Part shown: positions 521-62,649 of the stretch, one piece after another
Layout: the number at the start of each line of letters is the position of its first letter
Numbering within the stretch: the stretch's first letter is position 1
Assembly (NCBI GenBank): GCA_028717685.1
Contig: JAQUNI010000001.1
Location: forward strand, 548,062-612,061
Length of the DNA stretch: 64,000 nucleotides
Source: Patescibacteria group bacterium
GTDB lineage: Bacteria; Patescibacteriota; JAQUNI01
Direction: 5' to 3'
Translations under genes and position numbers: made by a program
The notes under the pieces: generated by a model
The model's database searches: none
Told to the model about the DNA's origin: nothing
What the model saw: the letters and a program-made list of their open reading frames with translations, nothing else

Positions 521-650
521 AAAAATGAAAAATGTAAAATGTAAAATCATAATTCAAAATTAAAAATTTTGCATTTTACATTGTCTCGCTTTGCGAGATC
601 TCGCGAAGCGATGATAATTTTTCATTTTTTACTTTAAATTTTGAATTATG
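521..650. repeat. Composite palindromic intergenic repeat element, copy 1
   Basis: 7-nt-periodic arm (aaaatgtaaaatgtaaaatcataattcaaaattaaaaatttt), core near-palindrome TGTCTCGCTTTGCGAGATCTCGCGAAGCGATG, and an inverted arm copy (ataatttttcatttttt). A closely related copy lies at 50161-50250. Confidence 0.55.
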
Positions 651-2443: not shown

Positions 2444-4321
2444 TTATTCCTCCTCATTTGCTACAGGTGGATTCTTTTTTGCTTCTGTCGGTGGGGGCGG
2501 TTTTTTTTGTTGATTTTCTATTTTAGGCGGAGTATTTCCTTTTTGTTCGCCTTTAACATCAGTTCCGCCTGTGCCTACTAAGAATACGGCGTTCCAAGGC
2601 TGGTATTTAGAATAAAAACTATCACGCAGAATTTCCTGCCCATCACGGGTTACGGCGCGGTGAAAAACCGTGGAAATGCCCTTATGTTCCTTTTCTATTT
2701 GTTTTTTTTCTCCTTTTTTCAGGGTGTTGGTTTCAATGTATTCCGGCGGGCTCGGGTTAACCCACCCTGAAGTATAGTATGGACCTTCAATGTTCACCTT
2801 GCGGCCGTCGTCCGTGCCGTAAAAATCAAAATAGAGTTTATTGCCAATGATGCGTTTTTGAATCAAGATATGGCCCGGCGTGTCGTTTTTAAAACGCAGA
2901 TCTGGATGAGGAATGTAAATCGTGGCATCCATTCCGGTTGGTTTATAATAAGAGACGACATATTTATGGGCTTTGCGTTCCGTGATCGGCAGTCCAGAAT
3001 ATATAGCCGCGCGGAAGAGGGTGGTGGAGACTTGGCACAATCCCCCGCCAAATTCGGGAATCGTTCCCTCGGGTTTTATCACAAGTTCTGGCTTGTAGCC
3101 CGTAGCCGCCGATACTTCGCCTAAAGTTTGAATAATGGAGAATTCTTCGCCCGGTTCAATTAAAACACCGTTCAGTTTTTCCGAGCCGACGCCAATATTA
3201 TGTTTGCGGTTTAAAGGAGAACCGGCAAAGTCTGATTCTCCCGTACCAATCAAAGTTTTAATGCCGAGTTCATCAATATTTTGATTGCTTACATTGGGCG
3301 TGACCGTGCGCACTGTGATTTCCGTTTTTTTCTCGCTTCCTTCGGTTGGGGTTTGCAGGGCGTTTTTAATCAATTCCATGGTTTCTTCTAAATCAATCTT
3401 TTTGCCATCTTGCCCTAATTCAAAAGCAACGACGCGATTGTTGTCAATTTTAAAACGGGCATCTTCAGGTTCCTGTTCAATTTCAGCGGCAACATTTTTT
3501 AAAAAGGCATCCGCGGTTTCCCTTTTTAAACCTGCTTCCATCATTTTGTTTTGGTTTAGTTGAAAGTCAACCCAAGAAACAAGCATTTTTGGAGAAACAG
3601 TCCAATATTTTTTTTCATAAGTAAGTTTTAGAGGCTTTTGAATCATTTCCTCCGCCATATTATAAGCATCTAGGACATTGGCGCGAGTCACTTCAGGGTG
3701 GCTTTCTTTAATAACTACCTCAATTTTTTGATCCTGAAGATTATCTAAACTATTTTTAATTTTTTGCTTGAGTTCCGCGAGGTCTATCTCTTGACCGATT
3801 TTCTCTTCTTTGATTTCAAAACCAGAATTTTTCAAAATCACTTCCGCCATCTCCGGTTTTACTTCTAAGAACGTCAGATTATTTTTTAGATATTGATCCA
3901 ACTTATCCTCGTCTAGTTCATATCGCAGAGGCAGATTCACGCCCCGTATCAGAATCGCAAGTTGGCTTTTTAACCTTTGAACAATATCCTTTTCGTGGCC
4001 TAGGAGAAACGCTTCGTCTAAAGTTTGGTTCACCTTGAAGGTAAGTCCGATATCTTTTTCAGCCAGGGGCCATTCCCTTTCTTTATAGAAAATAGAGACC
4101 CCCTGATTTTGAAAATAGTTGATACGTTCTTGCAAGATGCTTTGCGCCTCATTTTTACTTTTACCTCCGAGATCCAAACCCGCCACTTTAATACGGGGGT
4201 AAATTTTTTCGGCATAAAAGAGATTCTGCGTTAAAATAAAAACGCCAAATACCAGAAGGATGATGATAGTGAAAAACAATGGGAGATTCAGTTTATTCTT
4301 ATTCCTTTTAGGTTTAGACAT
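2444..4321 (-). CDS. VanW-family protein with an N-terminal membrane anchor
   Basis: 625 aa. N-terminal TM segment; C-terminal region with GGGLCQVSTTLFRAA typical of the VanW domain; Pro/Lys-rich tail. Confidence 0.75.
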   Translation of the reverse strand: MSKPKRNKNKLNLPLFFTIIILLVFGVFILTQNLFYAEKIYPRIKVAGLDLGGKSKNEAQSILQERINYFQNQGVSIFYKEREWPLAEKDIGLTFKVNQTLDEAFLLGHEKDIVQRLKSQLAILIRGVNLPLRYELDEDKLDQYLKNNLTFLEVKPEMAEVILKNSGFEIKEEKIGQEIDLAELKQKIKNSLDNLQDQKIEVVIKESHPEVTRANVLDAYNMAEEMIQKPLKLTYEKKYWTVSPKMLVSWVDFQLNQNKMMEAGLKRETADAFLKNVAAEIEQEPEDARFKIDNNRVVAFELGQDGKKIDLEETMELIKNALQTPTEGSEKKTEITVRTVTPNVSNQNIDELGIKTLIGTGESDFAGSPLNRKHNIGVGSEKLNGVLIEPGEEFSIIQTLGEVSAATGYKPELVIKPEGTIPEFGGGLCQVSTTLFRAAIYSGLPITERKAHKYVVSYYKPTGMDATIYIPHPDLRFKNDTPGHILIQKRIIGNKLYFDFYGTDDGRKVNIEGPYYTSGWVNPSPPEYIETNTLKKGEKKQIEKEHKGISTVFHRAVTRDGQEILRDSFYSKYQPWNAVFLVGTGGTDVKGEQKGNTPPKIENQQKKPPPPTEAKKNPPVANEEE

Positions 4322-7864: not shown

Positions 7865-7890
7865 CCGTTAGAAATAAATTTCTAACGGGG
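7865..7890. promoter_or_regulatory. GC-clamped palindrome ccgTTAGAAATAAATTTCTAAcgggg, a TTAGAA-N6-TTCTAA element
   Basis: Perfect 8+2+8 inverted repeat at 7868-7885. It abuts the stop of the PrsW-like gene and lies about 90 nt upstream of the hsp20 ATG. Confidence 0.4.
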
Positions 7891-8589
7891 CTAGCGGGAT
7901 TTACTATTGAGTTGGGCTTTTTTCCCTTTCAGGCCTTTGATCAGCTGATTTAAAGTGATAAAAATACCGAGGAGCAAGATGATTAGGAAGGGGATAGTCA
8001 TATTCAGTCTCAACGTAATCATAAAATTGTAGGCTCCATGGATGATGATGGCAATTAAAAGCCCGCGCAGGATTAGCTTTTTTTCCTCTTTCGGGTTAAA
8101 GCGGGCGCGACCTAAGTAATATCCGACAATACCAGAGGTTAAGGCATGCATTAGGGTGGCGGTAAAAAAGCGGAAGAGAATAATAGAAGGACCGCTGCCT
8201 AAGGTGGCCATCAGATTTTCCAGGGAAGCGAAGCCTAGACCCGCGACCGTGCCATAAATGATCCCGTCCAATCGTTCGTCAAATTCAGGGCGGCGGTAAA
8301 CCTTTCTTTTGATGACAAGATATTTTAAATACTCTTCCACCGGCGCAATCACGAGAAAAGTCCCCCAGATAATTTGACCGATGCTATTATTATCCGAGTA
8401 AGGCATAATGTAGTCCACGATAAATTCCAAGGCGGCTGCCGGTATGGTCATCAACATACCCCAGATGAAGATTTTAAAGACGAGCTTTAAGGGTTCCGGC
8501 TCTTCACGATCCTTGCGGCGATAAAAAATAAGCCAAAAAATTCCCGGCGAGAGCGCGATCAAGATGTAGAATAAAAGTCGCATAATCAA
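7891..8589 (-). CDS. PrsW-family intramembrane metalloprotease
   Basis: 232 aa polytopic protein carrying the PrsW signature motifs EEYLK, FASLEN, HALTSG and HGAYN. Confidence 0.7.
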   Translation of the reverse strand: MIMRLLFYILIALSPGIFWLIFYRRKDREEPEPLKLVFKIFIWGMLMTIPAAALEFIVDYIMPYSDNNSIGQIIWGTFLVIAPVEEYLKYLVIKRKVYRRPEFDERLDGIIYGTVAGLGFASLENLMATLGSGPSIILFRFFTATLMHALTSGIVGYYLGRARFNPKEEKKLILRGLLIAIIIHGAYNFMITLRLNMTIPFLIILLLGIFITLNQLIKGLKGKKAQLNSKSR

Positions 8590-11738: not shown

Positions 11739-11974
11739 ATAGCAAGTGCAAAATTTAAAAATCCAAATTTAAAATTTAGGTAAATATACAAAGTGACTTT
11801 AGCATAGAGATTGAAATTTTTCAATAATTAAGATAGCGTGTAGATAAGTAATTTTTAATTTTGATTTTTTGATTTTTAGCTAATTTTTATTGAATTATTG
11901 TATTATTGTCTTGCTTATGATGGCAATAAAAATTAAGCAAATAAAAATTAGTTAAAAATTAAGAATTAAAAATT

Positions 11975-13083: not shown

Positions 13084-14742
13084 TTAACTTACTCTTTTTA
13101 ATTCTTCCAGGGTGGTATCGCCCCGTATCACCTTGCGCAAACCGTCTTGGATCAAGGTAAACATTCCTCCTTGAATAGCCTCGCTGTAAATTTCTTCGGG
13201 CGCGCCGCGACTGGCGATTAATTTGCGAATTGTTCTGGAAATATGCATAATTTCAAAGATGCCGACCTGTCCTTTATAGCCAATATTTTCGCAAAGTGGA
13301 CACCCTTTGGACTTAAAGAGAGTTAATTTTTCTGGCAGGGGTATTTTATTTTGGGCGACTTTTTTAATTTTTTCATAAAGTTCCGGAGAGACATCGTAAG
13401 GCTTGCGGCACTCTTTGCAAAGAAGGCGTACCAATTTTTGGTTGATTAAAAGATTTAAGACGTTGGAGAGGTTTTGAGGGTCTGTGCCCATATTGGTGAG
13501 CTGCGTAATAATCTCGGGGGTAGAACCGGCATGGAGGGTAGAGAGGACTGTATGTCCGGTGGTGGCGGCACGAATGGTGATCTCCGCAGTTTCCGGATCT
13601 CTGATTTCCCCGACCATAATCACATCAGGATCTTGTCTCAACACGCCGCGCAGCGCCCGAGCGAAAGTGAGGCCTTCTCTTTCATTAATCTGGATTTGGG
13701 AAATCCCCTCAAGACGATATTCAATAGGATCTTCTAAGGTCATAATTTTAATTTCGGATGTCTTTCTGTGGCTTAAAAAAGCGTAAAGGGTAGTGGTTTT
13801 TCCGGAGCCTGTGGCGCCGGTGAGCAAAATCATCCCGCTAGTTTTACTAAGGTCGGTTTTTACTATCTCTAATTCTTCCTCGCTGATGCCTAAGTTTTCA
13901 ATCTTGAGCAGGTAATCACGATCAAGACCAAGCAGGCGCAGGGTAATTGCCTCCCCGTAATTAGTGGGCAGGGTAGAAATCCGAATGTCAATTTCCGCAT
14001 GATTGTGGTAAACAGTGAATCGGCCATCTTGAGGCATTTTTCTGACATTTAATTTCAGCCCCCCGATTAATTTTATTCGCGAAAGAAGACGGGGGTAAAT
14101 TTGAGGGGAGAAAGCAATAATGTCGCGCATAATTCCATCAATACGGAGGCGCAGAACCACTTCATTCTCTTTAGGCTCTAGATGGATGTCGCTCGCTCTT
14201 GCCCCAATGCCCCGCGCAATAAGGAGACTAATAATTTCTTCAGTATTTTTATTGATGAGAGCCGGCCCTAAGGCTTGCCAGGATTCCAGTTCCGAGGAGG
14301 CTCCCGCGATTAAATCCGAGGTGATTCTAATTTTTTCTTCTTCCGAAAGCGGAATTTTGATTTCACCAACCATGAGCGGATAAAGGGAAATGGCGTGTTC
14401 AAAACTGGCTTCCGAAACAAGGTAAATAATGCATTGATATTGTTTTTTCAATGTGTCAATAATACTTAAAGCGGCTTGGTTGTGAGGGTCAGTAATGCCC
14501 AATCTTAAAACATCCTTACTTTTATAGAAACAGATGATTTGGCCTTTTACGCTTTCAGCTTTGGAAATCAAAGTTAAAGCTTCAGATTCAATCGCCAGCT
14601 TTTGCAGATTAATGTAGGGTATTTTATTTTTTAACGCCAGGGCTTTAATCCTTTTTTCTTCAAAGCTAATGCTTTTTTCTTCCACGGTGCTGAAAAGTTC
14701 GGTAACATCTTGGGATTGTTGATTTTGAATATCTTTAGGCAT
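13084..14742 (-). CDS. Type II secretion / type IV pilus assembly ATPase (GspE/PilB family)
   Basis: 552 aa with a GspE N-terminal domain, Walker A GATGSGKTTTL, Asp/His boxes and a C-terminal CxxC…CxxC cluster. Confidence 0.9.
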   Translation of the reverse strand: MPKDIQNQQSQDVTELFSTVEEKSISFEEKRIKALALKNKIPYINLQKLAIESEALTLISKAESVKGQIICFYKSKDVLRLGITDPHNQAALSIIDTLKKQYQCIIYLVSEASFEHAISLYPLMVGEIKIPLSEEEKIRITSDLIAGASSELESWQALGPALINKNTEEIISLLIARGIGARASDIHLEPKENEVVLRLRIDGIMRDIIAFSPQIYPRLLSRIKLIGGLKLNVRKMPQDGRFTVYHNHAEIDIRISTLPTNYGEAITLRLLGLDRDYLLKIENLGISEEELEIVKTDLSKTSGMILLTGATGSGKTTTLYAFLSHRKTSEIKIMTLEDPIEYRLEGISQIQINEREGLTFARALRGVLRQDPDVIMVGEIRDPETAEITIRAATTGHTVLSTLHAGSTPEIITQLTNMGTDPQNLSNVLNLLINQKLVRLLCKECRKPYDVSPELYEKIKKVAQNKIPLPEKLTLFKSKGCPLCENIGYKGQVGIFEIMHISRTIRKLIASRGAPEEIYSEAIQGGMFTLIQDGLRKVIRGDTTLEELKRVS

Positions 14743-14863
14743 AATGTAGAAAGGTAAAATGTAAAGCGAAAAGTTTAAAGCAAAAATTCAAAATGCAAAA
14801 TATAAATATAGAAACACTAATTTATTTTACGCTTTTATTATACTCTTTTTATGGAAAACAAAA

Positions 14864-16102: not shown

Positions 16103-16269
16103 TTTAATTTATCGCATCTTATTAAAGGTGTCAAATAGGGTAAAATAAATTAAAATGCAAAATGTAAAATTATAATTAGAATTTTGTCATCTTCTTAATT
16201 TTTAGGTAAGATAAACAATGAAGCTTCGCGCTACATAGAGGCACAGAGAAGTAATTAAATAATAAAACA

Positions 16270-26105: not shown

Positions 26106-27143
26106 ATGAGAATTGTTGAAATAAATCAAAAAGAAGAGTTGAACAATTTTATTGTTCAGTATGGAGGCAGTAATTTTTTGCAATCTTGGGAATGGGGAGA
26201 GTTGCAAAAGAATTTAGGTAGAGACATCTGGCGCGTGGGGATAGAAGAAGCGGGAAAATTAGTTTTTTCCGCTTTGATTATCAAAAATAGACTGCCTTTG
26301 GGCAGGAGTTATTTGTATTGCCCGAGGGGACCGGTTTTTGAAAATTCAAAATTTAAAATTCAAAATTTAAAATTAGTTGGTTGGAAGCTGTTGTCAGAGA
26401 AGATAAGAGAAGTAGCTCAAAAAGAAAGAGCAGTTTTTTTCCGTTTTGATTATCCTGATTTACACTTGCCAGAGTTTCTGAAAGGCAAGGTTGTTCAATC
26501 TCCCAAGGATATTCAACCCAGAAGCACTTTAATTTGGGATATTACAGGGTCAGAAGAAGAAATTTTAGCCCAGATGAAGCCTAAAACGCGCTATAATATT
26601 CGTCTAGCGCAAAGAAAGGGGGTACGCGTCAGGCAAGGCGTAGAACAGACAGATTTAAATATTTTTTTAAGCTTAATTAAAGAAACCTCGCAAAGAGATG
26701 GATTTAAGATTCATCCGGAGTTTTATTATCAAAAAATGGTGGATTTTTTGGGTAAAGAAGGGATTTTAAAGATTTTTTTGGCTGAATTACAAGAAAAGGT
26801 TTTAGCCGCAAATTTAGTTTTGTTCTGGGGCGAGCGAGCGACCTACTTGCACGGCGCCTCGGGTAATGCGAATCGCAATGTGATGGCGCCGCACCTTTTG
26901 CAATGGGAACAGATTAGAGAGGCAAAACGGTTTGGTTGCAGGGAATATGATTTTTGGGGAATCATGTCGGAATTAGGAATCAGGAATCAGGAATTAGGAA
27001 TAAAGACCAATGATGAGCAGAGTTCTTGGGTAGGTATTACCAGATTTAAGAAGGGTTTTGGGGGCAGGGAAGTCAATTATGCCGGCACTTATGATTTCGC
27101 GCTTAATCATTCTTGGTATAAAATATATCGCCTATTTAAATGA
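26106..27143 (+). CDS. FemAB-family peptidoglycan interpeptide-bridge peptidyltransferase
   Basis: 345 aa with the FemX-like motif KPKTRYNIRLAQRKGV. Two in-frame low-complexity insertions are encoded by 7-nt tandem repeats at 26340-26376 and 26969-27004. Confidence 0.65.
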   Translation: MRIVEINQKEELNNFIVQYGGSNFLQSWEWGELQKNLGRDIWRVGIEEAGKLVFSALIIKNRLPLGRSYLYCPRGPVFENSKFKIQNLKLVGWKLLSEKIREVAQKERAVFFRFDYPDLHLPEFLKGKVVQSPKDIQPRSTLIWDITGSEEEILAQMKPKTRYNIRLAQRKGVRVRQGVEQTDLNIFLSLIKETSQRDGFKIHPEFYYQKMVDFLGKEGILKIFLAELQEKVLAANLVLFWGERATYLHGASGNANRNVMAPHLLQWEQIREAKRFGCREYDFWGIMSELGIRNQELGIKTNDEQSSWVGITRFKKGFGGREVNYAGTYDFALNHSWYKIYRLFK

Positions 27144-49317: not shown

Positions 49318-50160
49318 ATGTCCAGAGAAAGATTAACAATTACCATTAACAAACGACTCATCGGCTTATTAGACGATTTTATTGACGGTGAGAAGATCCG
49401 CAACCGTTCGCACGCGATTGAGTATCTTTTGAGTAAAACGCTGGCGCCCAAGGTTTCGCGCGCGATTATTTTAGCGGGTGGCCAAGGCTTAAAAATGCGG
49501 CCTTTTACCTATGAAATGCCGAAGTGTTTGATTCCAGTGCGCGGCAAACCTCTTCTCGAGCACACTTTGGATTTATTAAAGAAATATGAAATCCGCGACA
49601 TTGTGATTACGATCGGACACCTGGGAGAGAAGGTGCGGAATCATTTTGGCGACGGCTCGCGGTTCGGGGTAAAAATTACCTATGCGGATCAAGGAGAGGG
49701 TTTTCGGGGGACGGGCGGCGCTTTGAAGGTGGCAAGGAATCTAGCGGGACATCCTTTTTTGCTTTTCTATGGAGACGTCTTAGCAAATATTGATTTAAAT
49801 GATTTGATTGACTTTCATAAAAGCCATGGCAAAACAATGACGATGGCTTTAACGAGCGTGGAGGATTCATCGGTTTGGGGAGTGGTGCAGCTTCACGGCT
49901 CCCAAATCCGGGATTTTGTGGAAAAGCCTAAACAGAGCCAGAGATTATCGCGGCTTATCAACGCAGGGATTTATGTCGTGGAGCCTAAGATTTTTGATTA
50001 TTTCCCCGGAAAAAATATTTTTCGCCTGGAAGAAGATGTTTTCCCAAAGCTCGCGCAAAGCGATGAACTATATGGCTATCCTTTTGAGGGGCAATGGTTT
50101 GACATTGGCACGCCTGAAATTTACGCGCGGGTGATTAAGGAGTGGAACGGGATCAAATAA
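49318..50160 (+). CDS. Sugar-1-phosphate nucleotidylyltransferase with an N-terminal ribbon-helix-helix (CopG-like) domain
   Basis: Residues 1-45 (ERLTITINKRLIGLLDDFIDGEKIRNRSHAIEYLL) match the RHH beta-alpha-alpha pattern. The remainder is an NTP-transferase fold (ILAGGQGLKMRP…, GTGGAL, YGDVL). Just upstream, a hairpin ctccccc/gggggag includes the RBS. Confidence 0.7.
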   Translation: MSRERLTITINKRLIGLLDDFIDGEKIRNRSHAIEYLLSKTLAPKVSRAIILAGGQGLKMRPFTYEMPKCLIPVRGKPLLEHTLDLLKKYEIRDIVITIGHLGEKVRNHFGDGSRFGVKITYADQGEGFRGTGGALKVARNLAGHPFLLFYGDVLANIDLNDLIDFHKSHGKTMTMALTSVEDSSVWGVVQLHGSQIRDFVEKPKQSQRLSRLINAGIYVVEPKIFDYFPGKNIFRLEEDVFPKLAQSDELYGYPFEGQWFDIGTPEIYARVIKEWNGIK

Positions 50161-50250
50161 ATGAAAAATTGTCTCGCTATGCGAGATCTGGCGGAGCCAG
50201 AAAAATGAAAAATGCAAAATTGCAATGCAAAATTAAAAATTGAATAAGAG
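50161..50250. repeat. Composite palindromic intergenic repeat element, copy 2 (reverse orientation relative to copy 1)
   Basis: AATGAAAAATTGTCTCGCTATGCGAGATCTGGCGGAGCCAGAAAAATGAAAAATGCAAAATTGCAATGCAAAATTAAAAATTGAATAAG. The core differs from copy 1 at about 4 positions. Confidence 0.55.
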
Positions 50251-50390
50251 ATTTTTTAGATTGCAGGGTTGCGTTTTTTATTTTTTTGATCAGTTCTTTT
50301 TTAAGTTGGTTTAAATCTTTGATTTGAACCAAAATGGTTCTTTATGATTTATGATTTGGTGGTATTGGATTTTTGGATAAGGGAGGAGCA

Positions 50391-50657
50391 ATGAGATCTT
50401 TTGATGAGGTTAAACAGGATATCTTGAGTCAGATTGAGCACGTGGCGTCAGTAAGATGCGATAGTACAGTAGCGGCTTGCTCTTTGAGGCGGAGAGAGAA
50501 TATAAAATTCAGAATAAGTGGAGGGAGTTGCCCTGGAGCAAAGAGTGTTTGTGACGATGTGGAAGGCGCTTCTTCTATCCAAGGGCTGAAAGATAGCTTA
50601 GGCAGTCTAATGTGCGTTCAAACAATGTTTGGAGATATTTTGAAGGAGGGTGAGTAG
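50391..50657 (+). CDS. Hypothetical small protein, 88 aa, Cys-rich; first of a three-gene cassette
   Basis: RBS GGGAGGAG 6 nt before the ATG. Five Cys residues (…VRCDSTVAACSLRR…GGSCPGAKSVCDD…LMCVQ…). Confidence 0.4.
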   Translation: MRSFDEVKQDILSQIEHVASVRCDSTVAACSLRRRENIKFRISGGSCPGAKSVCDDVEGASSIQGLKDSLGSLMCVQTMFGDILKEGE

Positions 50658-50869
50658 TGGAGGAGGAAGAAATTTTTGACATTTTGCCTAGGCCCACAAA
50701 GAATATTAGTGCCGAGGAGATTCAGATGGCACTAATTGAGCTGCAAAATGCAGGAATAAAAACTTTTATGGGGGGTTATGATGTAGAAGCTTTGTTGATG
50801 TCAGTTTCAGAAGAAGGGGGGCAAGATGAACTTGGGGAAGTATATAGAGAATCTCAAGAACGATCTTGA
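50657..50869 (+). CDS. Hypothetical small, highly acidic protein, 70 aa, GTG start overlapping the upstream stop
   Basis: RBS GAAGGAGGG; start coupled to the stop of the previous ORF (TAGTGG). Begins MEEEEIFDIL. Confidence 0.35.
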   Translation: MEEEEIFDILPRPTKNISAEEIQMALIELQNAGIKTFMGGYDVEALLMSVSEEGGQDELGEVYRESQERS

Positions 50870-51041
50870 GAATGGGGGCGTGGCAGATGATTCGGTCGCT
50901 GTACTTTGTTATATTACAGCAGCGAATCGTGCTAAAGAAGTTATCCAAGCAGGCGGACCAGAAAAAGAGACTGCTCAAAGTTTTCTAGATCTTTGTATGC
51001 AGTCAGGCTGTGAAGGTTTAAGAACTGTTGTAGCTCTATAA
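50826..51041 (+). CDS. Hypothetical small protein, 71 aa, four Cys; overlaps the previous ORF by 44 nt in another frame
   Basis: RBS GAAGGGGGG before the ATG; C-terminus …LDLCMQSGCEGLRTVVAL. Confidence 0.35.
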   Translation: MNLGKYIENLKNDLENGGVADDSVAVLCYITAANRAKEVIQAGGPEKETAQSFLDLCMQSGCEGLRTVVAL

Positions 51042-54001: not shown

Positions 54002-54086
54002 ATCTCAAAAGTTAAAAGTATCATTCTGAATTTTTTATTGTAGTTAAGATTTGAGTTTTGATTTTTGAGTTTTGAGTTTATGTTAG

Positions 54087-54171
54087 TGCTGGGAGGGAGA
54101 TTTGAACTCCCATGGTATTGCTACCGCTAGCCCCTGAAGCTAGTGCGTCTGCCAAATTTCGCCATCCCAGC
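54087..54171 (-). tRNA. tRNA-Leu (anticodon CAG)
   Basis: rc is GCTGGGATGGCGAAATTTGGCAGACGCACTAGCTTCAGGGGCTAGCGGTAGCAATACCATGGGAGTTCAAATCTCCCTCCCAGCA. 85 nt with a long variable arm and anticodon loop TTCAGGG. Confidence 0.85.
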
Positions 54172-54339
54172 ATTTTTTGAAAAGGCGCATCACGGCAGCG
54201 ATTTTCAGACAAGAATCGTGATTTTCTGAAGATCTCGCGCAGTGATAGCAAGAAGAGAGGTTAGAATAAACCCTTGCAATTTGGTTAATCAATAAATTAT
54301 TATTTTGTTTTTTATTTAAAAGGGGAGGAAAAAACAGTT

Positions 54340-59659: not shown

Positions 59660-62500
59660 ATGCCGAAGAAAATTATTATCCGCGGGGCGCGGGTGCATAA
59701 TCTAAAAAATATCAATCTAGAGATTCCACGAGATAAATTAGTGGTTTTTACTGGTTTGTCCGGCTCGGGAAAGTCCTCGCTTGCCTTTGATACGATTTAT
59801 GCCGAAGGTCAGCGCCGTTATGTGGAGAGTCTATCCGCTTACGCGCGGCAGTTTTTAGGTTTAATGGATAAGCCGGATGTGGATCAAATCGAAGGATTAT
59901 CACCAGCGATTTCCATTGATCAGAAATCCGCTTCCTCTAATCCGCGGTCTACAGTGGGCACGATTACTGAAATTTACGATTACTTACGTTTGCTATTCAG
60001 CCGCGTCGGCAAACCTCATTGCCTTTCCTGTGGCAAGCCGATTACCGCCCAGACAGCGAGCCAGATTACAGACAAGATTCTTGCCCTTCCTCGCGATTCT
60101 CGGGTAATTATTTTAGCCCCCTTGGTGCGCGATCGCAAAGGCGAACATAAACGGGAAATGGCAGAGATTCAAAGAGCAGGGTTTGTGCGGGTGCGTTTAG
60201 ATGGAGTGATATTAGAATTGGAAGAGGCGCTTCAGGGCAATATTAATCCTAAAAAGAAACACACTTTAGAGATTGTGGTGGATCGGCTAGAGATCAGTGG
60301 AAACAAAGAAAACAGAGAGCGGGTTGCCGATTCCATAGAGACAGCATTAAATTTAGGCAATAGTTTAATTATTGTGCATAATCTGAACACCAGTGAGGAC
60401 TTGATGTTTTCAGAAAATTTTGCCTGCCCGGAATGCGGCTTAAGTCTGCCTAGCTTAGAACCGCGCGATTTTTCTTTTAATTCGCCGCACGGCGCCTGCC
60501 CGGAATGTACTGGTCTTGGCACTAAGTTAGAGGTTGACCCTCTCTTAGTGATTCCGAATAAAAGGCTTTCTATTTATGAGGGCGCGATTCGGCCCTGGGC
60601 AAGGAGCGCTTCGCGCAATGGTTGGTATATTCAGATGTTGGAAGCAGTGGCTTCTTATTACGGTTTTTCCTTGAGCACCCCTGTGGCAGGGCTTAAAAAA
60701 AAGGATCTGGAGATTATCCTTTATGGGACTGCCGATACCCGCATTCCTACCGCGTTTAAAAGAGATTATCGTTATTTGCAAGCCGAAATTCCTTTTGAAG
60801 GGGTGATCCCTAATTTGGCTCGGAGATATCAGGAGACAGAATCTGATTATGTGCGCCGTGAGATTGAAAAATATATGCGCATTTATCCTTGCCCCACTTG
60901 CAATGGTATGCGTCTCAAAAAAGAAATTTTAGGGGTAAAGATTATGGGGCGTTCCATTGTGGATATTGCGCAAAAGGACATTGCTGAAGCCATAACTTTC
61001 TTCCAAAATTTAGAAAAGGATTTAAACGCTCGGGATAAAATTATCGCTAAGCAGATTTTAAAAGAGATCCGCGCCCGTCTTTCTTTTTTGCAAAATGTGG
61101 GTCTTTCTTATTTAACTTTGGATCGGCCGGCAGCCTCCTTGGCGGGCGGCGAATCCCAAAGAATCAGGCTCGCAACCCAGATCGGTTCTGCTTTAGTCGG
61201 CGTGCTTTATATTCTGGATGAACCCTCTATTGGTTTGCATCAAAAAGACAATGTGCGCTTAATTGAAACCTTAAAAAAATTGAGAGATCAGGGTAACACG
61301 GTAATTGTAGTGGAACATGATGAAGAAATGATTTTAAACGCCGACTTTATCGTGGATATCGGACCAGGGGCGGGGAGAGAAGGCGGGGCAATCGTCGCTT
61401 GTGGAACACCGGCAGAGATTAAAAGGAACAAACGTTCTCTTACGGGTCAATATTTAAGCCGTCATCTGGAGATTCCCTTGCCTCAAAAATATCGTCCTGG
61501 AAGCCACAAAAAAATCACCATTTATGGCGCTTCGGCGCATAATTTAAAAGAGATTACCGCGGAGATTCCTTTGGGCAAGCTAGTTTGCGTTACCGGCGTT
61601 TCGGGTTCGGGTAAATCCACTTTAATCTGCGATATCTTGGCGCGGTCCTTGGCTCAATATTTTTATCGCGCCCGCACCCTACCGGCTAAACATAAGAAGA
61701 TCACGGGTTTTTCATATCTGGACAAAGTGATCAGTATTGATCAATCACCGATTGGCCGCACTCCGCGTTCCAACCCGGCGACTTATACTGGCGCATTCAC
61801 CCACATCCGTGATCTTTATGCGGCAACTCAGGAGGCCAAAATTCGAGGTTATCGCGCGGGTCGTTTTAGTTTTAATGTGAAAGGAGGTCGGTGCGAGGCC
61901 TGCCGGGGTGAGGGTTTAGTCAGGATTGAAATGCAGTTTCTGCCGGATGTGTATGTGGAATGCGAAGAATGTAATGGCACCCGTTACAACAAAGAAGCCC
62001 TGGAGATTTATTACAAAGATAAAAATATCGCTGATGTTTTAAAAATGACCGTGGCAGAAGCTTTGCAGTTTTTCCGCAATGTGCCAGCGATATATCAAAA
62101 ATTAATAGTTTTATGCGATGTGGGTTTGGATTATATTCAGTTAGGTCAACCTGCACCTACTCTTTCTGGCGGCGAAGCGCAAAGAGTGAAACTCGCTAGC
62201 GAACTCGCGCGGCGCGCTACAGGGAAGACCCTGTATATTTTAGATGAACCGACCACGGGTTTGCATTTTCACGATGTGGGAAGGCTGTTGGCGGTTTTAA
62301 ACCAACTGGTGGATAAAGGCAATACGGTTTTGGTGATTGAGCATAACTTAGATGTCATCAAATCCGCGGATTGGATTATTGATTTGGGACCGGATGGCGG
62401 GGAGGCGGGCGGCTATCTTGTAGCGGCAGGCACGCCGCGCCAAGTCGCCAAAGTGAAAGCAAGTTATACGGGACAGTTCTTGAAGAAATACTTTCAATAA
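59660..62500 (+). CDS. uvrA: Excinuclease ABC subunit A
   Basis: 946 aa with duplicated ABC ATPase modules (two Walker [19 protein letters not shown], signature LSGGE) and zinc-finger CxxC pairs. Confidence 0.97.
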
Positions 62501-62649
62501 TTTTTAATTTTTAATTCTGAATTTTAAATCAAATCCAAATTTTAAATTCTTAATTTTAAAACTTTTTTTTCTTCGTTTTAAACTTTAAAATTCAAGCATT
62601 TAAAATTGATTTAAAATTAAAAATTTATAATTTAAAATTTTATTTAAGG

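Follow-up and report, generated by a model that had tools for sequence, protein, structure and literature searches.

A 30-nt double hairpin at two loci of a Patescibacteria contig: probable copies of a mobile family spread through the Candidate Phyla Radiation

The 64,000-nucleotide (nt) stretch of contig JAQUNI010000001.1 considered here (the window; Patescibacteria group bacterium, assembly GCA_028717685.1) carries at two distant intergenic loci a small GC-rich element made of two hairpins in tandem. We read both loci as copies of a nonautonomous, selfish mobile double hairpin of 30 nt, a family spread through the Patescibacteria or Candidate Phyla Radiation (CPR), and put the probability of this reading at about 0.75. 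Comparison of sequences supports the mobile status of the family well; its mode of movement we infer. A preliminary description of the window had reported a shared core at both places, and the cores are there as claimed (TGTCTCGCTTTGCGAGATCTCGCGAAGCG at 582-610 and TGTCTCGCTATGCGAGATCTGGCGGAGCC at 50170-50198, both on the + strand), with no core match in 100 shuffles of the sequence. That description had also considered the case in which only these two copies exist and no insertion polymorphism is seen. Many members are found in other genomes, and presence or absence varies between relatives.

Each core consists of a tandem pair of 15-nt units, each a palindrome with the pattern TCTSGC-N3-GCSAGA. 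A covariance model made from family members and run on the window with filters off finds two significant copies in the 64 kb and only these two. Copy 1, a 30/31-nt double hairpin at 584-614 (+; 46.6 bits, E 5e-14), is preceded by TTG at 581-583 (+) and consists of unit 1, TCTCGC-TTT-GCGAGA (584-598, +), and unit 2, TCTCGC-GAA-GCGA(T)GA (599-614, +), the latter with a single bulged T. Copy 2, at 50172-50201 (+; 57.6 bits, E 9e-18), consists of TCTCGC-TAT-GCGAGA (50172-50186, +) and TCTGGC-GGA-GCCAGA (50187-50201, +). Between the copies, unit 2 differs by a compensated exchange of one stem pair, C-G in copy 1 and G-C in copy 2, and the stem stays intact. Either strand of copy 2 folds into a pair of hairpins. 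The stems of copy 1 are identical in both units, so that one long hairpin is also possible, and this copy contains a perfect 12-bp palindrome, GCGAGATCTCGC. The GC content of the element is 49-58%, compared with 40-43% for the window, and its flanks are AT-rich. Searches with Rfam at the gathering score gave no match at either locus, the sole match in the window being one tRNA.

The family reaches far beyond this contig. The pattern TCTSGCNNNGCSAGATCTSGCNNNGCSA, with its S positions left free, was scanned over one genome per species for 185,579 species and matched at least 120 loci, against about 1 expected by chance (our estimate, from ~40 bits over 1.2e12 positions). Among the first 80 loci of the matches listed, 53 carry CPR names (Saccharibacteria, Moran-, Doudna-, Lipton-, Roizman-, Falkow-, Yanofsky-, Azam-, Adler-, and Staskawiczbacteria, Parcubacteria, and Paceibacterota). 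Another 8 of the 80 are labelled "bacterium" only, and the TopA proteins of two of these genomes are nearest to those of named Patescibacteria. A further 8 come from GC-rich genomes; these have mismatched stems in 7 of 8 cases, all 8 fall within GC-rich open reading frames (ORFs), and we read them as chance matches. Several contigs per genome were often matched, and one 8-kb locus (L056; loci outside the window bear our own numbers) holds three copies. Phages were considered as a vehicle and set aside, 2.9 million viral contigs having given a single match that was GC-rich, coding, and mismatched in its stems, as expected of chance. An assembly artefact was likewise rejected, since identical sequence occurs in independent assemblies (L121, L122, and L163) and the matches come from many projects. 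No description of this double hairpin was found in the open-access literature searched, including work on CPR palindromes, miniature inverted-repeat transposable elements (MITEs), repetitive extragenic palindromes (REPs), and GIY-YIG nucleases.

What is conserved across the family is the folded form. In the pattern-scan set the free S positions are complementary in 234 of 248 cases, with 99.6% paired cells in the model alignment; the counts for the swapped pair are CG:67/GC:66 in helix 1 and GC:67/CG:65 in helix 2, and the observed covariation score was reached by no shuffle. Copies found with the model or lying beside the GIY-YIG genes discussed below add compensated variant stems (TCCCGC/GCGGGA, TGCCGC/GCGGCA, TCCCCC/GGGGGA, and TCTGCC/GGCA(T)GA). 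The two loops are ordered as TNY then RNA in 62 of 87 copies and as RNA then TNY in 19, whereas the same polarity twice was never seen (0/87). With loops of opposite polarity, both DNA strands fold into the same shape. Many loops are C(GNA)G, the DNA mini-hairpin motif d(GCGAAGC), which is known for its unusual stability. Orientation relative to neighboring genes is biased weakly, at 14:7. Taken together, the covariation, the inverted loops, and this weak bias would favor folded DNA over an RNA function as the thing that is recognized.

The same data bear on whether the element could be an operator for a dimeric regulator or recombinase, laid out either as two 15-bp palindromes or as 12-bp arms around an AGATCT spacer. 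Such a site would fit the symmetric layout with its perfect palindrome in copy 1, as well as the retention of stem bases (TCT...AGA and GC...GC) across lineages. We nevertheless find it very improbable. Within a unit, a change at one S position is matched by a change at the other, which recognition of half-sites would not need, and divergent copies carry several compensated stem changes. Moreover, copies lie in coding sequence, their neighboring genes are unrelated, and a 10-residue in-frame insert in TopA or in an ABC ATPase would be senseless for an operator. Base-pair covariation within each unit also argues against the binding site that the preliminary description had listed among possible roles. 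Its further suggestion, that AGATCT is a restriction or methylation target, is not supported as the constraint on the sequence, since divergent copies lose AGATCT and keep both hairpins (L012, GGGATGCC; L046, AGATCC).

The element also occurs within genes. Long ORFs contain about 30 CPR copies, and of the 67 copies that could be oriented 22 are within ORFs, the host genes encoding IleRS, LeuRS, ArgRS, TopA, LigA, MurE-type ligases, an ABC ATPase, and others. The coding insert is in frame and 10 residues long. Its translation varies with the phase, being S[RG]xARS[RG]xAR, LAKPDLAPRD, or SLREIWQSQ. Stop codons are absent from frames 0 and 2 of either strand, four of the six frames in all, in 86-87 of 87 copies, and from frame 1 in ~70%. 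TopA is the cleanest case. One TopA protein (P0089, 751 aa) bears the sequence SRCARSGEAR, whereas >40 relatives at 80-84% identity are 741 aa long and lack the insert. In the DNA, the filled site gtgtta/30 nt/gagaac compares with the empty site atgctt/aaaaac (slashes mark insertion points here and below), and there is no target-site duplication. A third TopA lineage is also filled at this codon boundary, with another element sequence, TCTCCCTACGAGAGATCTGGCGTAGCCAGA. In the ABC ATPase, comparison with LolD structures shows an insert of exactly 10 residues. For MurE (L061 and L063), comparison with solved MurE structures falls in a variable aligned region and leaves the insert boundaries, and whether heptamers were inserted together with the element, unfixed. 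We also observed that two CPR genomes (L054 at 7751 and L086 at 7776) have the same element at the same site in an orthologous ABC-transporter ATPase (…VVLPLLM[SGSARSGEAR]…), either as an inherited insert or as a hot spot.

Presence and absence also vary at the two loci of the window. At locus 1, two independently made assemblies of one strain have an identical spacer between ruvB and the SIS gene, and the element is absent in relatives with 96% and 90% RuvB identity. Locus 2 is identical in Parcubacteria LiPW_72 (96% identity), and the element is absent in relatives at 97% and 81% identity. The notion of a MITE-like repeat put forward in the preliminary description therefore holds as far as mobility goes, given the many family members, the presence/absence at both loci, and the clean TopA site. 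It does not hold for a classical MITE, target-site duplication being lacking. The element is a palindrome in its own right, and no parent insertion sequence (IS) with shared terminal inverted repeats was seen in ~1 Mb of loci.

The location of the two copies raises the possibility that they are intrinsic terminators, perhaps bidirectional, whose likeness reflects convergent terminator design. Copy 1 occupies the spacer bounded by the ruvB stop codon (656, - strand) and the point where a SIS/PGI-type gene starts (506, - strand). Copy 2 comes immediately after the stop codon (50160, +) of an NTP-transferase gene, with three small ORFs (50373-51041) downstream. Both are thus just past a stop codon and between codirectional genes. 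Folding z-scores range from -2.9 to -5, those of the two-hairpin fold from -3.6 to -4.9, and a consensus scan calls terminator-like sites at 586-611 (+) and 50186-50172 (-). Both predicted sites, however, are antisense to the flanking genes, and what follows the hairpins on the sense strand is rich in A. Counts of terminator-like sites in these regions are not above those in shuffled sequence. A convergent design would also leave unexplained that the same sequence, and not just a similar structure, recurs across CPR phyla, that the element occurs within essential ORFs, where termination would be lethal, and that orientation to neighboring genes is just 14:7. We consider terminators an unlikely explanation. 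The bidirectional terminator or promoter module proposed earlier for these spacers is not supported either, given T-runs that are antisense to the flanking genes and the presence of the 30 nt inside essential ORFs elsewhere.

Members of the mobile family share a target context. Position -2 is T in 88% of flanks and position -1 is G in 58%, for a roughly symmetric consensus TTG/element/CAA. Copies usually have (T)TG before them and CA(A) after, and sit in the AT-rich heptamer arrays found between genes. Lag-7 autocorrelation is 0.452 in the AT-rich flanks, compared with 0.334 in control AT-rich windows of the same loci, and arrays can be seen by eye (AAAATTG x3-4, GATATTG x3, and GAATTTG/TGATTTG on both sides in direct orientation). 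An element polarity, with TTG on one side only, was also considered. G(-1) and C(+1) occur both in 25 copies, one alone in 52, and neither in 10, which is near independence (p = 0.03), and the polarity claim was dropped.

In the window, the left side of copy 1 is an AT-rich heptamer array (521-580, +; AAAAATG AAAAATG TAAAATG TAAAATC ... TTTTGCATTTTACA), and its right side (615-650, +) is AT-rich and holds ATTTTTCATT, the reverse complement of AATGAAAAAT. The left flank of copy 2 (50157-50171, +; AAATAAATGAAAAATTG) overlaps the stop codon of the NTP-transferase gene, and a heptamer array follows on the right (50202-50245, +; AAAATGA AAAATGC AAAATTG CAATGCA AAATTAA AAATTGA). Exact AATGAAAAAT sites number 4 in the window, all at the two element loci. 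AAAATGYAAAAT occurs 7 times against 0.26 expected, with 4 occurrences at the two element loci and 3 at 14790, 16152, and 16159; these last three bear out the arm-only fragments reported in the preliminary description. Heptamer arrays without a hairpin core are found at 14741-14821 (+), just upstream of a - strand gene start at 14742, and at 16137-16190 (+), within the divergent intergenic region 16103-16269. The arms are real, as had been noted, but they look like the generic intergenic arrays of the lineage and a preferred landing context, not part of the moving unit, because arrays occur without the element, both at these arm-only sites and in orthologous spacers that lack it. We also rejected the idea that the arrays arose as 7-nt target-site duplications: coding insertions lack a duplication, and arrays are present in element-free orthologous spacers (L164 and L124) as well as at the arm-only sites.

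The opposite orientation earlier ascribed to the two copies is right for the composite. For the core alone, the best alignment of the two copies is in direct orientation. For the composite with flanks it is inverted, with 54 of 67 columns identical, and both composites therefore point the same way relative to their neighboring genes. The inverted flank-only scores were reached by 0/300 and 6/300 shuffles, whereas flanks in direct orientation do not beat shuffles. Additional 7-nt-periodic AT-rich arrays (AAAATTY/AAATTTA types) were observed in the window at 11744-11776, 26338-26375, and 62499-62639; the array at 62.5 kb makes a 63-nt imperfect inverted repeat, and one array lies inside the predicted ORF 26106-27143. 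These further arrays may be promoter-proximal DNA typical of the lineage.

Only one protein family recurs beside the element among 253 neighboring ORFs, a GIY-YIG nuclease of ~80 aa (PF01541 match). In the 120 loci listed, 13 of 15 GIY-YIG ORFs lie within ~120 nt of an element, a distance at which we estimate ~3% would fall randomly in 8-kb loci. Most often, the 5' part of a tRNA is duplicated and the element interrupts this duplicate; the GIY-YIG ORF comes next, and the intact tRNA after it. The typical site in the tRNA fragment is between anticodon positions 34 and 35, past U33-G34; in tRNA-Cys(GCA), the element sits between G34 and C35 (CTG/CAAAAC; L029 and also L008, L114, and L115). In L028 and L075, the element comes after position 8-11 of the duplicated tRNA fragment, and in L071 the order is ORF, tRNA-Cys, element, and degenerate 3' half. 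A tRNA intron was considered for these loci and rejected, as the interrupted tRNA copies are partial or degenerate and an intact tRNA adjoins. A paper on tRNA group I introns in Patescibacteria contains none of the terms "GIY," "hairpin," "palindrom," or "tRNACys."

An independent test gave the same association. When GIY-YIG homologues were picked by protein search alone and their contigs inspected, double hairpins were present in a pseudo-tRNA just upstream of the nuclease gene at 4 of 5 distinct loci (L154, L155, L157, and L159). L157 has the canonical element, and L154 has different, compensated stems at the same site. In L155, hairpins occupy the D-, anticodon-, and T-loops of pseudo-tRNA-Cys pieces, and in L159 other GNA/TTCG mini-hairpins lie in a pseudo-tRNA-Ser(GCT), after the TTG of the anticodon loop. 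No hairpins were seen at L158, which has the most distant GIY-YIG homologue (44% identity). Single or double GC mini-hairpins were also observed in pseudo-tRNA loops at L155 (1430-1500 and ~1880-1930), L159 (1380-1470), and L071 (650-672). The pattern suggests that hairpins insert into the loops of existing stem-loops. The GIY-YIG linkage is solid, and it makes this nuclease a candidate mobilizer of the hairpins.

The element appears as a precise 30-nt block without target-site duplication. If the family is mobile in this way, a trans-acting factor would recognize the folded form of the element, as single-stranded DNA hairpins or as a cruciform, and the best candidate for that factor would be the ~80-aa GIY-YIG nuclease, the sole gene recurrently linked to the element. 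Both copies in the window are solitary intergenic passengers.

Several observations weigh against this account. Searching the 64-kb window with a hidden Markov model found no GIY-YIG ORF, and ~90% of element copies have no GIY-YIG gene nearby. Adjacency to the nuclease could arise from the anticodon loops of pseudo-tRNAs (YTG/), serving as good neutral targets. Between the copies in L056, and between the two copies in the window, 20-25 nt of flank on each side are common, and the moving unit may sometimes be larger than 30 nt, or there may be a second mode of spread. Spacers of relatives at the window loci differ wholesale, a sign of turnover and not of clean excision, and do not form clean filled/empty pairs. 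Stem positions other than S were fixed by the search pattern, and their conservation in that set is ascertainment, which makes them uninformative there. Low-GC metagenome-assembled genomes (MAGs) labelled Gammaproteobacteria, Pseudomonadales, Bdellovibrionales, or Desulfobacterales contribute 11 of the first 80 loci. Either those labels are wrong or the family reaches beyond the CPR. Finally, no transposition event was observed, and the case for mobility is one of comparison between genomes. As to the copies in the low-GC MAGs themselves (L015, L017, L036, L039, L058, L059, L062, L063, and L075, plus L050 and L052), they are well formed and mostly of the loop class GNA then TNC, as in Roizmanbacteria.

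Part of this evidence would suit a process in which host replication and repair alone make and keep the copies, for example by hairpin-primed template switching or by gene conversion between GC-rich palindromes of an AT-rich genome, a route that has been proposed for mitochondrial GC clusters. The many copies far from any GIY-YIG gene are compatible with it, as are the lack of a transposase family recurring beside the element, the enrichment of the flanks in slippage-prone tandem 7-nt repeats, and the analogy to yeast mitochondrial GC clusters (PMC4478555). Host repair is, in our judgment, improbable all the same. The same stem sequence and the fixed 15+15 nt in distant CPR lineages point to sequence-specific recognition, two lineages have precise insertions at one and the same codon boundary of TopA, and the GIY-YIG linkage is far beyond chance.

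Taking the mobile family as the preferred reading, we can tentatively imagine a new minimal mobile system of Patescibacteria, although we hold this larger proposal to be rather doubtful. It would consist of an ~80-aa GIY-YIG nuclease that is a catalytic domain only and of the 30-nt hairpin. Structure-specific recognition of the hairpins or cruciform would lead to copying of the element, alone or with the nuclease gene, into YTG sites of loops and AT-rich arrays, with horizontal transfer across the superphylum and 10-residue loops in essential proteins as consequences.

The genomes of Patescibacteria rank among the smallest and most streamlined in bacteria, yet they appear to carry a selfish element. 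At 30 nt and almost free of stop codons, it is small enough to survive in genes for IleRS, topoisomerase I, DNA ligase, and a cell-wall ligase. If the mobile family is real, the element would readily mark recent changes in genomes and gene flow among CPR lineages, would account for some lineage-specific 10-residue inserts in conserved proteins, and would confound the annotation of tRNA genes and spacers. With its single 80-aa nuclease and single 30-nt hairpin, it could also serve as a simple system for testing how palindromic mini-elements move, a question still open for REPs, Rickettsia palindromic elements (RPEs), and mitochondrial GC clusters.

Other features of the window and its relatives were noted along the way. 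A possible decayed copy, TTG-CTATCAC-TGC-GCGAGA-TCTTCA-GAA-..., lies at 54222-54256 (-), ~55 nt upstream of tRNA-Leu(cag). It had been singled out previously as a fragment of the element, and 15 of 17 bases do agree with unit 2, but the model gives 7.6 bits and E = 1.1, which is not significant; it is at best a decayed relic. The tRNA-Leu(cag) itself (54086-54171) was called by ARAGORN, and the Rfam tRNA model is silent there at the gathering threshold. Past copy 2, the three consecutive short ORFs (50373-51041; 94, 70, and 71 aa) have no Pfam match, and the number and size of the trio are kept in relatives (88/64/72 aa in L163 and 87/61/74 aa in L165). A second palindromic repeat family, CCCCGYTTAGAAAT..ATTTCTAACGGGG, is intergenic at 1831-1859 and 7865-7893, in opposite orientation and 90% complementary; it also fills the spacer between ruvB and the SIS gene in L123 (~3590-3620), the relative whose RuvB is 96% identical, where the double hairpin is lacking. 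In L165 (~960-1130), the orthologue of window positions 50161-50370 at 97% protein identity, a different element of ~170 nt with terminal inverted repeats CGTCATTGCGAGGAGCGA...TCGCTCGCAATGACG follows the NTP-transferase gene. The motif CTCGCAATGAC was also found after GCCATGAC-type double hairpins in L034, L040, L068, and L088.

By behavior, the closest known systems are mitochondrial GC clusters or double-hairpin elements (DHEs), RPEs, and REPs with their inverted doublets (REPINs); for the linked gene, the closest are GIY-YIG genes of the SegB type. DHEs form two hairpins, and in yeast a cluster lies in frame within the var1 gene. Like the GC clusters of mitochondria (yeast GC42-type and Allomyces), the CPR element is a short GC-rich palindrome in an AT-rich genome that folds as one or two hairpins and is sporadic and polymorphic, in spacers and at coding sites, which the clusters occupy occasionally. 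The clusters are organelle elements of unrelated sequence, and putative target-site duplications have been reported for those of yeast, whereas none is found at the TopA site of the CPR element. The fixed 15+15 nt design, the superphylum-wide spread, and the GIY-YIG link are further differences. As treated in PMC4478555 and its references, including Paquin et al. 2000, mitochondrial GC clusters encode no protein and their mechanism of spread is unresolved.

The likeness to RPEs is again one of behavior. RPEs are palindromic repeats of a bacterium with a reduced genome that are tolerated both in frame in genes and in spacers. They are ~100-150 bp long and confined to Rickettsia, whereas the CPR insert is 30 nt or 10 residues; RPEs are mentioned in PMC3767692.

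REPs and REPINs, which are thought to be moved by a single-copy enzyme, the REP-associated tyrosine transposase (RAYT), acting on folded single-stranded DNA, share with the CPR element short palindromes, inverted doublets, hairpin-based maintenance, and lack of autonomy. They are essentially extragenic, however, whereas about a third of the CPR copies lie in ORFs, and the CPR element has no GTAG-type 5' motif (GTAG/GTGG) but the flank consensus (T)TG/.../CA(A). Among the 253 neighboring ORFs there is no Y1/RAYT gene, the linked gene being the GIY-YIG nuclease. With no GTAG motif and no extragenic restriction, the element falls outside the REP-RAYT class. Palindrome-associated elements derived from IS200/IS605 also have hairpin ends, a short flanking motif, and no target-site duplication. 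In the CPR element the flanking motif is roughly symmetric (TTG/.../CAA) rather than one-sided, the whole element is two hairpins, and no TnpA or TnpB gene was found among the neighboring ORFs of its loci.

For the nuclease, phage T4 provides the nearest comparison. SegB is a free-standing GIY-YIG gene in the T4 tRNA cluster (PMC2330249), and both genes lie beside tRNA genes and show signs that adjacent tRNA sequence was copied. The CPR protein is chromosomal, at ~80 aa it consists of the catalytic domain without a DNA-binding domain, and it comes with a hairpin element that also has many solitary copies. Among short palindromic mobile repeats, the CPR element is unusual in its size, its spread across a superphylum, its linkage to a minimal nuclease of the GIY-YIG family, and the tolerance of it inside essential genes.

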